IMG/VR virus record: IMGVR_UViG_3300032050_000120
Coordinates: 451-64,450 of that record
DNA: 64,000 bases
Strand: one strand, 5' to 3'
Source: a virus
Taxonomy: Duplodnaviria > Caudoviricetes
A program made the translations under genes and the position numbers. The notes beneath the pieces were generated by a model. It was not told where the DNA came from and did no database searches. It saw only the letters and a program-made list of their open reading frames with translations. This document shows positions 59,100 to 62,678 of the stretch, piece after piece (the stretch's first letter is position 1; every line of letters begins with the position of its first letter).

Positions 59100-59175
59100 T
59101 GGTACGGGTGGTGGGACTCGAACCCACAAAACTCAGATTTTAAGTCTGATACGTATACCATTCCATCACACCCGT
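59100..59175 (-). tRNA. tRNA-Leu(UAA), short variable loop
   Basis: cloverleaf; TCAGA-CTTAAAA-TCTGA; CCA encoded. Confidence 0.85.
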
Positions 59176-59178
59176 ATT

Positions 59179-59253
59179 TGGTACGCAATGAGGGGTTCGA
59201 ACCCCCGACCTTCGCCGTGTAAAGGCACTGCTCTACCGCTGAGCTAATCGCGC
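59179..59253 (-). tRNA. tRNA-Val(UAC)
   Basis: cloverleaf; TTTACAC loop; CCA. Confidence 0.88.
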
Positions 59254-59260
59254 ATGTTTC

Positions 59261-59350
59261 TGGTGGTTCTCACAGGACTTGAACCTGTATAACCCTCTAA
59301 TCTGGAGTGCGAGGTATAAGCTCGGTGCATTACCATTATGCTAGAGAACC
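59261..59350 (-). tRNA. tRNA-Ile(UAU) with long variable arm
   Basis: GGTTCTC/GAGAACC acceptor; CGAG-CTTATAC-CTCG; ~19 nt variable region; CCA. Confidence 0.75.
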
Positions 59351-59399
59351 AAATTGCTTATCCTGTTATCAAAAACATACTAAGTCAATATGCTTTTGA

Positions 59400-59680
59400 T
59401 AGCCCTCTACTGGAGAGGACGACCACTTCCGTTGAGAAACCCACTCGGAAGAACAGTTGGATCAAGCAGCAAGTGCCTGAATGTAGTTATCGTCATTTGC
59501 GATTACTTTGGTTTGCGCTGATTGAGTCAGTCGCCTCACTGGTTGTCCAGTCGGATATCTTTCCCTGTCGAATCTGAAACTGCCCCATCAAAAATATTTT
59601 ACTCAGAAAACATTTTTGGTGGAGCAGACGGGATTTGCACCCGTGTCCAAGAAACCTTCTCGTTCCTTCATACAACCATA
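59400..59680 (-). ncRNA. ssrA: circularly permuted two-piece tmRNA; tag ANDDNYIQALAA
   Basis: acceptor piece ending ...TCCCGTCTGCTCCACCA (3' end 59617) precedes coding piece starting GGGGCAG...GATTCGAC (59586); G3-U70 pair; tag ORF 59462-59500. Confidence 0.9.
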
Positions 59681-59701
59681 TAAACTATTTAGTTTAAGTA
59701 T

Positions 59702-59777
59702 TGGTGCGCCCACTAGGATTCGAACCTAGAACCAAAGGATTATGAGTCCTCTGCTCTAACCGTTGAGCTATAGGCAC
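59702..59777 (-). tRNA. tRNA-CAU (Ile2-like or elongator Met)
   Basis: GAGGA-CTCATAA-TCCTT; CCA. Confidence 0.85.
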
Positions 59778-59903
59778 TTATTTCGCGTAGTCGAGATCGT
59801 GAAGGTCACTTGTGGCTTCAACGATCTCTTGAATAAGTTCCTTGTCGGTCTTTTCAGTTTCTTCACCTGGTGGTGTTACTTCAGTTAATACTTGCTTTTC
59901 CAT
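59778..59903 (-). CDS. small acidic protein within tRNA array
   Basis: 41 aa (MEKQVLTE...); AAGAGG RBS. Confidence 0.45.
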   Translation of the reverse strand: MEKQVLTEVTPPGEETEKTDKELIQEIVEATSDLHDLDYAK

Positions 59904-59917
59904 TGTATACCTCTTAT

Positions 59918-60009
59918 TGGCGGAAGTGGTAGGATTTGAACCCACGGATCCTTCTCAGGATCGTCTGATTTCAAGTCAGGTGCATTAAACCAAGCTCTGC
60001 CACACTTCC
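59918..60009 (-). tRNA. tRNA-Ser(UGA)
   Basis: CTTGAAA loop; long variable arm; G73; CCA. Confidence 0.9.
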
Positions 60010-60015
60010 TTAAAT

Positions 60016-60100
60016 TGCGCGCCCTCGGTTAATTCCAAGTCCTCGTTCACCTGTTCAATTAGGGCTACTTGGGTACATGTGCTTTAGGCACATCCACGCA
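60016..60100 (-). ncRNA. unassigned structured RNA between tRNA-Ala and tRNA-Ser
   Basis: terminal stem TGCGTG/CGCGCA; hairpin ATGTGC/GCACAT; stem CCAAGT/ACTTGG. Confidence 0.5.
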
Positions 60101-60347: not shown

Positions 60348-60384
60348 ATAACTTATTATATCATAAAACTTATTGTTAATCAAA

Positions 60385-61312: not shown

Positions 61313-61858
61313 TTAACCCTCTACACTATAAACTTTACTTGGGCTGACCCAATCAAAACTTGGTTTGCCTTCTATCCAACTATCATCAAGCCATAATAAT
61401 TTATTGTTAGGATAAGCCACCCACTGCCCAGACTCTAAACTAATTATATGATGATTCTTGTGTTGATCTGGTATTTCACTGAAGCCACCAGTAGCCCAAT
61501 CTATTGTGAATAGATACGAGCCTCGTCTTAGTTGTTTATCTCGTCCATAGCAATTTACCGCATGGTTTCTTAGAAAAGCAAATTCATGAACCGTGCAATA
61601 TCTACTATAGCAGTCCCACCAAACGCTAACATCCAGGGGGAGTGGATCACAGGGTTTACTGCATATCATATGTATCGGAACTCTAGCCCACTGTGCTCCA
61701 TTAGCAAGCATAACCTGGAACATAGGCACTCGCTGCGGTTCACTTCGGAAACCAAATACATAGGCTTCAGTAAAATCCCCATAACCACGTTTTTCGTCAT
61801 AGAAAAATTCTTGACGAATAAAACATCTTGTGTATGGAGTATCAACTAAAAAAGTCAT
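61313..61858 (-). CDS. conserved phage hypothetical protein
   Basis: NGAQWARVPIH; WDCYS; YLFTIDW; QHK..H; YPNN. Confidence 0.7.
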   Translation of the reverse strand: MTFLVDTPYTRCFIRQEFFYDEKRGYGDFTEAYVFGFRSEPQRVPMFQVMLANGAQWARVPIHMICSKPCDPLPLDVSVWWDCYSRYCTVHEFAFLRNHAVNCYGRDKQLRRGSYLFTIDWATGGFSEIPDQHKNHHIISLESGQWVAYPNNKLLWLDDSWIEGKPSFDWVSPSKVYSVEG

Positions 61859-61884
61859 TGTGTATTATTTATACAAGAATTATA

Positions 61885-62172
61885 TCACACCTTATCCAGA
61901 ATTGCAACAACGTCTTCTTCATTGATGAATGAATAGTCTAGCCCACTGATTCTGACGGGTAAGGCTTTCGTCCACATGATATAGATGGTGTATCCTGGCT
62001 TGACGTGCTCTACATCAGGTCCACACTCGATCACAGTTGCGGTTCGAGATTCATCACCCGTACCACTTTCAACTATGATACCAGAAAGCGTTTTGGTTTG
62101 TACGTCATTTGCTTTGATTAAAATACGCTTGTGTAGCGGGAATACATGATTCATTCTGGCTAGTTCATTCAT
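61885..62172 (-). CDS. GroES-like co-chaperonin (gp31-like)
   Basis: PLHKRILI...TLSGII...VIECGPDV...EEDVVAI. Confidence 0.8.
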   Translation of the reverse strand: MNELARMNHVFPLHKRILIKANDVQTKTLSGIIVESGTGDESRTATVIECGPDVEHVKPGYTIYIMWTKALPVRISGLDYSFINEEDVVAILDKV

Positions 62173-62678
62173 TTTAGCATCCTTTTCTTGTTTCGGGTTA
62201 TTTTAGTACGGAGTTTACGGGCAGCTTCTATTTGCATATTAGTTGCGTTTTTGTAGAACGGGGTTCCGTTCAGGTGGTCTAGTTCGTGTAGGAAACATCG
62301 ACAGTGCCACTCATCAAAGGTCTTGGTTGTGGTAGTACCAGATGGGGTAGTAAAACGAACCTTAACCGTGTGTGGGCGTTTAATGTCAATCCAAAAGTCT
62401 GGGTAGGATAAACAACCCTCTTGCATCTTGGCAAGTCCAGAGCTGACCGCCACGACTTTTGGATTGAAGCATACGAATGCTGGGCTACCTTCCATGACAA
62501 AAACACGGTAGGGTAAACCAACTTGATTTGCAGATAAGCCTATTCCCTGGTTGGCTCTCATAGTTTCGATCAGATCGAGTGCCAGCTGCTCTGGGTCGCA
62601 GGGTGGATTTTCAAAATCAAATTTTTGCATCTCTTGAAACAGCATTTCGTGATTTTCGGGTAAAAGCTTGTATATCAT
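62169..62678 (-). CDS. def: peptide deformylase
   Basis: GIGLSANQVG; EGCLS; HELDHLNG. Confidence 0.93.
   Translation of the reverse strand: MIYKLLPENHEMLFQEMQKFDFENPPCDPEQLALDLIETMRANQGIGLSANQVGLPYRVFVMEGSPAFVCFNPKVVAVSSGLAKMQEGCLSYPDFWIDIKRPHTVKVRFTTPSGTTTTKTFDEWHCRCFLHELDHLNGTPFYKNATNMQIEAARKLRTKITRNKKRMLK

Follow-up and report, generated by a model that had tools for sequence, protein, structure and literature searches.

A circularly permuted, betaproteobacterial-like tmRNA gene among the tRNA genes of a T4-like phage known from uncultured DNA

Transfer-messenger RNAs (tmRNAs), the products of ssrA genes, release ribosomes that have stalled; they can be encoded in permuted order and made as two pieces; such a two-piece tmRNA was reportedly described in Caulobacter by Keiler et al. 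in 2000, and a betaproteobacterial form, of the Rhodocyclales lineage, is said to have been described by Sharkady & Williams in 2004. Here we analyse a permuted tmRNA gene on the minus strand of the IMG/VR virus record IMGVR_UViG_3300032050_000120, which is estimated to be ~38% complete; the stretch analysed (the window, 64,000 nt) is nearly the whole of this 64,450-base record, and all coordinates are those of the window. Two-piece forms make up 53 of 133 unique phage tmRNAs (50 from marine/aquatic phages), one is carried by the OM43 phage Melnitz, and permuted tmRNA occurs in 17/47 Melnitz-like contigs (PMC9004378). The 2025 tmRNA database, which introduced the Rfam family RF04321, holds 79 bacteriophage sequences in a total of 97,179 (PMC11915505). 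Because phage two-piece tmRNAs are in print (PMC9004378) and annotated, the gene analysed here is an ordinary member of an already described and annotated group. Standard tools (ARAGORN, Rfam 15) detect it unaided, and what follows is a matter of correct annotation rather than of discovery.

We consider it very likely that the window carries a functional, phage-encoded, circularly permuted, betaproteobacterial-like tmRNA (ssrA) gene, and that this gene belongs to the tRNA array of a T4-like myophage from freshwater that is not in culture. Like the tmRNA genes of other aquatic myophages (Melnitz, pelagimyophages, cyanophages), it is a permuted ssrA gene of a T4-like phage, is detected by ARAGORN and is accompanied by no phage smpB (PMC9004378). 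The Melnitz gene is described there as of an alphaproteobacterial-like type and as having both a glutamine riboswitch and an early promoter (PMC9004378), whereas the window's gene scores as beta type, is embedded in a tRNA array and is preceded by a late-type motif, and no riboswitch was matched by Rfam in the window. With Caulobacter and the Alphaproteobacteria (RF01849) it shares the same principle, namely a permuted gene, a precursor cut by tRNA enzymes and two paired RNAs, but the lineage differs: the alpha model, scored singly, gave a partial match of 50.5 bits over model positions 40-268 of 355 only. Its likeness to the Rhodocyclales genes of RF01850 extends to the architecture of P2 and the pseudoknot PK1, two hairpins after the tag, a full-length match above cut-off and a shared signature, UUCGACAGGG-N17-CAAC-N5-AGGCGAC; the Rhodocyclales genes differ in being bacterial and chromosomal, with a sigma70 promoter, ANDERFA[LVI]AA tags, a CCA that is mostly unencoded and ~70% identity to the window's gene.

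Counterparts also exist in cultured phages. T4-like Stenotrophomonas phages (Menderavirus: Marzo, Mendera, Moby, IME-SM1, YB07 and Yut2/3, some with 'tmRNA' annotated in their GenBank records) resemble the window's phage in carrying a beta-type permuted gene between tRNA genes of a T4-like myophage, and Marzo likewise lacks SmpB. The Marzo gene, which lies between tRNA-Leu and tRNA-Thr, carries the annotation 'tmRNA', is called tmRNA* by ARAGORN and scores 119 bits with RF04321 and 94.6 bits with RF01850. Similarity between the Stenotrophomonas phage genes and the window's gene is weak and patchy (~80% over two pieces covering 32% of the window gene, E 0.09), the Menderavirus tag is (VA)ANDDSYTVRIAA, and the hosts are clinical or soil bacteria, as against a freshwater setting for the window's phage. 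In its accessible part, the genome note on Mendera is silent about the tmRNA. A related viral gene (L261) matches 25 cultured phage records, 17 of which are Stenotrophomonas phages of ~160 kb. Beta-like two-piece tmRNAs are thus widespread in T4-like phages, including cultured ones that are open to experiment.

ARAGORN called 12 RNA genes in the window: 11 tRNAs and a permuted tmRNA (tmRNA*) at 59371-59709 (-) with the tag ANDDNYIQALAA. On the minus strand the acceptor/T-arm half comes first and terminates in ...CUGCUCCACCA at 59617; a 30-nt segment follows, and then the coding half, which begins with GGGGCAGUUUCAGAUUCGAC (GGGGCAG start) at 59586 (Table 1). The preliminary description, made from the sequence alone, had read the locus in this way, and the order of the halves, both inner ends and the hairpin spacer all hold. 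GGGGCAG and CUGCUCC pair into an acceptor stem that includes G3.U70, the alanine determinant named earlier, and is followed by A73 and an encoded CCA; the third acceptor pair is G.U in 40/40 of the genes we aligned. The tag frame is the one first proposed, preceded by the conserved UAA-NN motif, opening with an alanine resume codon and running to an ALAA ending and a UGA stop. In the fold, the AU-rich spacer hairpin is continuous with the acceptor stem and stacks on it (-14.3 kcal/mol, z -3.56, equalled by 2/200 shuffles), and the same hairpin forms in the related viral contig L067 (-13.1 kcal/mol, z -3.15). A stretch of 45 nt downstream of the stop codon is identical across the window, L067 and a second relative, L127; the first two of the three post-stop hairpins align to the 3' hairpins of RF01850, and the third, built of an A-run and a U-run, is possibly a weak terminator or a 3'-end protector.

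Covariance models identified the gene at full length. RF04321 (tmRNA_permuted, Rfam 15) matched 59462-59677 with 125.9 bits (cut-off 47, E 3e-24; model positions 1-213 of 213), and RF01850 (beta_tmRNA) matched 59397-59711 with 98.4 bits (cut-off 84; model positions 1-331 of 331), so that two of the checks suggested in the preliminary description, ARAGORN and permuted covariance models, recover a permuted tmRNA. The RF01850 match, which took the clan slot in the Rfam listing, is overlapped by the neighbouring tRNA-Met. Scored singly, the cyanobacterial model (34.1 bits) and the one-piece model (21.9 bits) both stayed under their cut-offs.

To the same end point the individual helices. We aligned 40 genes, namely the window's, 27 from viruses and 12 from bacteria, over the part that opens with GGUUGU and closes with the stop codon, and the structure was drawn from the helices of the window's gene, which is itself one of the aligned sequences and somewhat favours the structure over slid controls. 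Helix cells were paired in 92.4% of 1303 cases, against 45-53% in six controls slid by 1-3 columns; both sides had changed in 25/34 pairs, and 0/500 shuffles matched the observed values on any of five measures. This covariance support covers the two helices, P2a and P2c, that had been proposed to join the pieces (Table 1). The acceptor and T stems also carry compensatory differences relative to the four closest viral relatives, contigs L127, L311, L067 and L335, in which the gene is 86% identical over 319 nt and encodes the tag ANDSYYNQALAA. The tags of the window and L067 differ by 3 synonymous and 3 non-synonymous codon changes, and all 3 synonymous ones sit in the unchanged C-terminal QALAA.

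Table 1. Coordinates of the tmRNA gene, its parts and its neighbours, and pairing of its helices in the 40-gene alignment
Feature	Position	Strand	Remarks
sigma70-like promoter, TTGATT-17-TATAAT plus upstream TG	60355..60383	-	at head of tRNA-Arg; 10/12 matches
tRNA-Met(CAU)	59702..59777	-	ARAGORN; directly upstream, 24 nt before acceptor piece
CTAAATA motif	59686..59692	-	8 nt upstream of GGUUGU / acceptor piece
acceptor piece, 61 nt	59617..59677	-	RF04321 match, covariation
P2a strand GGUUGU	59677-59672	-	in acceptor piece
P2c strand UUUCUUG	59654-59648	-	in acceptor piece
T-arm; its loop UGCAAAU	59644-59628; 59639-59633	-	in acceptor piece
acceptor 3' strand CUGCUCC	59627-59621	-	in acceptor piece
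discriminator A; encoded CCA	59620; 59619-59617	-	in acceptor piece
intervening segment (spacer), 30 nt	59587..59616	-	12-bp hairpin; predicted to be excised by the enzymes of tRNA processing
coding piece	59397..59586	-	Rfam match, covariation
acceptor 5' strand GGGGCAG	59586-59580	-	in coding piece
D-loop analogue UUUCAGAUUCGA	59579-59568	-	in coding piece
P2c strand CAGGGAA; P2a strand ACAACC	59567-59561; 59546-59541	-	in coding piece
pseudoknot PK1	59540-59518	-	in coding piece, upstream of resume codon; tag frame and two hairpins follow
tag reading frame (GCA...UGA), ANDDNYIQALAA	59462..59500	-	resume codon GCA 59500-59498; stop UGA 59464-59462
three post-stop hairpins	59372..59451	-	59451-59426, 59425-59397, 59396-59372
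90-nt tRNA-like gene, called tRNA-Ile(UAU)	59261..59350	-	ARAGORN; Rfam tRNA 58.8 bits; directly downstream
helix P2a, GGUUGU/ACAACC			96.4% of cells paired; both-side changes in 3/6 pairs
helix P2c, UUUCUUG/CAGGGAA			99.3% of cells paired; both-side changes in 5/7 pairs
T stem			99.5% of cells paired; both-side changes in 5/5 pairs
acceptor stem			97.9% of cells paired; both-side changes in 3/7 pairs
PK1 stem 1			96.3% of cells paired; both-side changes in 2/2 pairs
PK1 stem 2			87-89% of cells paired; both-side changes in 4/4 pairs

The genomic setting is that of a phage. T4-like genes flank the RNA cluster, namely a gp44 clamp loader, a gp45 sliding clamp and a gp46/SbcC-like nuclease that is best matched, among cultured phages, by OM43 phage Melnitz (42.5% identity), with Stenotrophomonas phage DLP_6 next at 41.5%, and the tmRNA sits inside the tRNA array between tRNA-Met and a 90-nt tRNA-like gene, all on the minus strand. 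In L127, L311, L067 and L335 the tmRNA stands first in a tRNA array of 7-10 genes. With phage genes on both sides on one contig, and the gene kept in related phages, the tmRNA is phage-encoded, as had been proposed. Sampled words of 59100-60100 were present at 55-65% in 14 DNA runs from 9 studies, labelled as freshwater (11) or crustacean (3) metagenomes; contigs from one of these runs (X1) differ from the window at 0-3 positions over 148-368 nt, and this run may be the source sample. Positions 59576-59643 were covered by no run examined, DNA runs included. Because of the T4-like flanking genes and the freshwater-labelled runs, we take the phage to be a freshwater T4-like myophage.

It could be objected that tmRNA genes are common integration sites (PMC4383910 and PMC4131195) and that viral-contig collections include proviruses with host flanks, so that the gene might be host DNA: a bacterial ssrA beside a prophage, or an assembly chimera. 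We find this hardly credible: a phage tRNA array encloses the gene, and T4-like replication genes stand on either side in the same contig. The arrangement is common to four independent viral contigs, the 14 DNA runs from 9 studies hold over half of the sampled words, and no close match turned up among the bacterial genomes scanned. A second group points the same way: L296, one representative of the large ANDDSFTPMALAA group of viral genes, has PhoH, gp59-like, HNH and cell-wall hydrolase genes around its tmRNA and no integrase among them; from this gene context the tmRNA of L296 is phage-borne too.

A search for SmpB (PF01668) found none in the whole 64,450-base record, in agreement with what had been noted for the window, and none in any of 6 records when four related fragments (13-51% complete) and the complete 159,384-base Marzo genome were included. 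As no phage SmpB was found, the RNA presumably works with SmpB of the host.

Related genes are numerous among viral contigs. A first pattern ('CCA, short loop, GGGG...UUCGAC') matched at least 119 of them, and ARAGORN called a tmRNA in 83/119 of the loci listed (82 permuted, 1 one-piece). A second pattern, built from the coding-piece letters common to the window and the beta consensus and not demanding permutation, matched 97 viral contigs and at least 120 bacterial stretches; all 87 ARAGORN calls in the viral set were permuted, and the bacterial set, among the matches listed, gave 91 permuted and 4 one-piece calls, the 28 bacterial loci left without a call being mostly chance matches in unrelated phyla. 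When Rfam was run on 18 further viral loci, the beta type was best in 13 (94-158 bits) and the alpha type in 4, and one odd locus scored 130 bits with the permuted model and 52 bits with the one-piece model. A tRNA lies within 1.5 kb of only 11/174 viral permuted calls, and for this reason the array context is a trait of the window's sub-lineage. In 85 viral beta-like genes the intervening segment that separates CCA from G1 measures anything from 4 to 90 nt, 44 nt being its length in a large group of them.

The bacterial two-piece genes among the matches listed come almost all from Rhodocyclales and their neighbours (Thauera, Azoarcus, Azonexus, Dechloromonas, Accumulibacter, Sterolibacteriaceae), and all of them have ANDERFA[LVI]AA-like tags. 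The best of these matches is ~70% identical to the window's gene over 172 nt. Against cultured phages, blastn gave no match at E<=1e-5 and only patchy ones at E<=10, best in Stenotrophomonas phages; BLAST against 400 sampled Gammaproteobacteria genomes returned just 22-46-nt fragments, in 4/400, and no close match.

Two Pseudomonadales-labelled genomes, a metagenome-assembled genome contig (L160) and Pseudomonas indica (L177), carry a Rhodocyclales-like permuted tmRNA with the tag ANDERFAVAA. On the 4.7-kb L160 contig, where RF04321 scores 116.5 bits, ARAGORN also called a one-piece gene with the tag ANDDNYALAA. Contamination during binning, horizontal transfer or a second ssrA allele could each account for these cases.

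The preliminary description had suggested, from the likeness of the tag to the gamma-type ANDDNYALAA, that the phage might have permuted its tmRNA independently. This does not follow from the tag, as ANDD...ALAA-type tags are common among permuted viral tmRNAs; moreover, the beta model fits best, and many viral contigs, as well as cultured Stenotrophomonas phages, have such a gene too. The permutation in the window's phage is certainly inherited and widely shared, not new. For the phage clade overall the evidence leans, though not decisively, against an independent permutation.

For comparison we took one-piece genes from 61 sampled genomes of the GTDB class Gammaproteobacteria, 53 of which have a one-piece gene above cut-off (genome G044 entering this tally only), and used the 28 usable genes of the 30 best-scoring loci. 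A quick tree (120 rows, 183 columns) grouped the window's gene (WIN in alignments and trees) and all 19 bacterial two-piece rows together in a set of 37 rows (Shimodaira-Hasegawa-like approximate likelihood ratio test, SH-aLRT, 85), the 28 one-piece rows standing apart. Forcing the window's gene and that of L067 to group with the one-piece genes gave a log-likelihood (lnL) 6.3 better than the unconstrained quick tree, with p 0.586 in the approximately unbiased (AU) test; since the constrained search had thus found a better tree than the quick search, the quick tree was superseded. A careful maximum-likelihood search on 86 rows, with 7 long-branch rows dropped and the alpha-like clade reduced to 8 rows, recovered a 43-row set of the window's gene, 23 viral and 19 bacterial two-piece rows with support 99/95, and all 28 one-piece rows lay separately (100/99), the bootstrap not being fully settled. 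On this tree the same constraint is 11.5 lnL worse and is not rejected by the AU test (p 0.333), and a tree in which all beta-like permuted rows are held together is likewise unrejected (AU p 0.338).

These results bear on whether the permuted form arose within phages, the beta-like two-piece genes then deriving from a one-piece proteobacterial tmRNA and their Rhodocyclales likeness reflecting beta/gamma ancestry. We think this unlikely. The AU test leaves room for it, and so do several differences between phage and bacterial genes: CCA is encoded in the window's gene and in 81/85 viral genes (retrieved by a pattern in which CCA was not required), as against 8/88 bacterial two-piece genes among the matches listed, 66/88 of which end in CCC; phage tags are of the ANDD...ALAA type and bacterial ones ANDERFA[LVI]AA; the nearest bacterial gene among the matches listed is a distant one; and the cultured carriers infect Stenotrophomonas, whose own tmRNA is presumably one-piece. 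On the other side stand the full-length, above-cut-off match to RF01850, including its two 3' hairpins, the best scores of the beta type in 13/18 viral relatives, the careful tree, which joins the window's gene to all 19 bacterial two-piece rows without any of the 28 one-piece rows, the inheritance of the permutation in this phage, and the coding-piece signature, present in 88/88 bacterial two-piece genes among the matches listed and in 0/28 sampled one-piece genes, 19/28 of which have its GGCGAC core.

It is unlikely that the beta-like two-piece tmRNAs of T4-like phages form a phage-propagated lineage of their own that does not descend from the Rhodocyclales permutation, be it through a separate permutation in phages or because phages seeded the bacterial form. 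The traits of such a putative lineage would be the encoded CCA, the ANDD...ALAA tags and a recurrent A/G swap at the contact of D-loop and T-loop; if it were real, these phages would impose a two-piece rescue RNA on hosts with a one-piece tmRNA.

The unrejected placement of the window's and L067's genes with the one-piece genes also weighs against our reading of the locus as a functional, betaproteobacterial-like phage tmRNA, as do the following points. A third joining helix proposed by eye, P2b (GGA/UCC), was only 49% paired despite both-side changes in 3/3 pairs, and we rejected it. Contigs from RNA libraries (X16, X20) differ at 1-2 positions from 59393-59517 and 59645-59681, but where the window has 127 nt between 59517 and 59645 they carry 218 other letters; they come from a relative with a different spacer and cannot demonstrate transcription of the window's gene. 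Compatibility with the SmpB and AlaRS of the host is assumed. Finally, the T-loop of the window's gene is UGCAAAU rather than the usual UUCRANY, and its D-loop analogue reads ...CAGA-UUCGA, with AG for GG, where the closest relatives have UUCAACU and ...UGGC-UUCGA; together these changes could mean a weakened tRNA-like elbow, though both co-occur across the data set.

This co-occurrence is nearly complete. Among the 263/279 genes in which the T-loop could be parsed, those with a UUC loop have G at the third place before UUCGA in 224/224 cases, and those with a UGC loop have A there in 38/39, the window included. The swap falls at what we take to be the G18-U55 elbow contact (tRNA numbering). 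On a 107-row subset of the tree the two traits need 7 and 8 changes, and four independent pairs on well-supported branches all go in the same direction, although with n=4 no outcome of a sign test can be significant (p 0.125). The UGC genes, 39 in number, all come from viral contigs; the bacterial sample holds no Alphaproteobacteria, so phage specificity cannot be read off from this. We found no published account of a paired D-loop/T-loop change in a full-text literature search. We regard the two changes in the window's gene as compensating each other rather than as signs of decay, and the paired change may interest RNA structural biologists.

The atypical loops could also be taken as a sign that the RNA is a competitor or decoy, which titrates host SmpB or swaps the host's tag and so alters the fate of stalled products in the phage's favour. 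There is a precedent in a molecule of mycobacteriophage DS6A consisting of a tRNA-like domain only, which is reported to inhibit tmRNA (PMC4131195 and PMC11915505); moreover, as no phage SmpB was found, that of the host must be shared, and the tag is longer by two inserted residues (IQ) than ANDDNYALAA, which was the most frequent tag in the one-piece genes sampled. A pure decoy, however, needs neither a coding piece nor PK1, a resume context and an ALAA-ending frame, all of which are kept here with synonymous changes, and the loop variant recurs in 38 other genes with their tags intact. We therefore regard a decoy role as quite improbable and favour a working tmRNA.

How such a tmRNA would act can be outlined from established two-piece tmRNA biology, as in Caulobacter. 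A single precursor would be transcribed from the sigma70-like promoter of the array or from the CTAAATA motif; RNase P would cut before G59586, tRNA 3' processing would trim the other half to the CCA at 59617, and the acceptor stem and P2 helices would hold the two pieces together. Once charged by the AlaRS of the host, the RNA would be brought to stalled ribosomes by host SmpB and EF-Tu. Resumption at GCA would append (A)ANDDNYIQALAA, marking the peptide for host proteases, and tagged peptides would end in AANDDNYIQALAA. The likely benefit would be that ribosome rescue is maintained in infection while host transcription and mRNA are destroyed.

The tmRNA had further been described as lying under a late promoter; of this, the CTAAATA motif stands, and the promoter remains at the level of a motif match. 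The consensus of T4 late promoters is TATAAATA, and ACTAAATA agrees with it at 6/8 positions. CTAAATA occurs 14 times in the window, compared with 8.0+-3.0 expected, and 5/100 shuffles reach 14. Nine of the 14 copies lie 18-40 nt ahead of the start of a same-strand open reading frame (ORF); two stand before a gene for a virion structural protein (phrog_1645), and another before a gene with weak connector/baseplate matches, the other genes downstream having unknown or non-structural annotations. Relative to GGUUGU, the motif occupies the place of the -10 box in the bacterial beta model, and in close relatives CTAAATA lies 20 nt upstream, with TATAAT in between. A late promoter for the tmRNA is plausible from the motif; the sigma70-like site upstream could equally drive the whole tRNA array, tmRNA included, and is itself weak evidence, as the 2.4 kb examined held just 2 promoter-like sites, where shuffles gave 4.3+-1.8.

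The array is closely preceded, at 61313-62678 (-), by genes whose products are a peptide deformylase (phrog_2890), a co-chaperonin of the GroES-like kind (phrog_3188) and a ferredoxin-like protein (phrog_3704); with the 11 tRNAs and the tmRNA these genes make up a translation and protein-maturation cluster. The locus thus adds a freshwater T4-like lineage with a tmRNA built into its tRNA array and near a peptide deformylase and a GroES-like gene, and the cluster fits the idea that large phages bring their own translation-maintenance kit.

Two smaller features adjoin the tmRNA. An acidic 55-codon ORF between tRNA-Ser and tRNA-Met (59778-59945, -) overlaps the 3' part of tRNA-Ser and has no PHROG match; it may be spurious. 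The gene called tRNA-Ile(UAU) has a variable arm of ~20 nt, and a long variable arm is unusual in an isoleucine tRNA. Its homology to Tyr/Ser tRNAs of related contigs is not clear, the gene is missing from the four close relatives, and in the free-energy fold the expected anticodon stem does not form.

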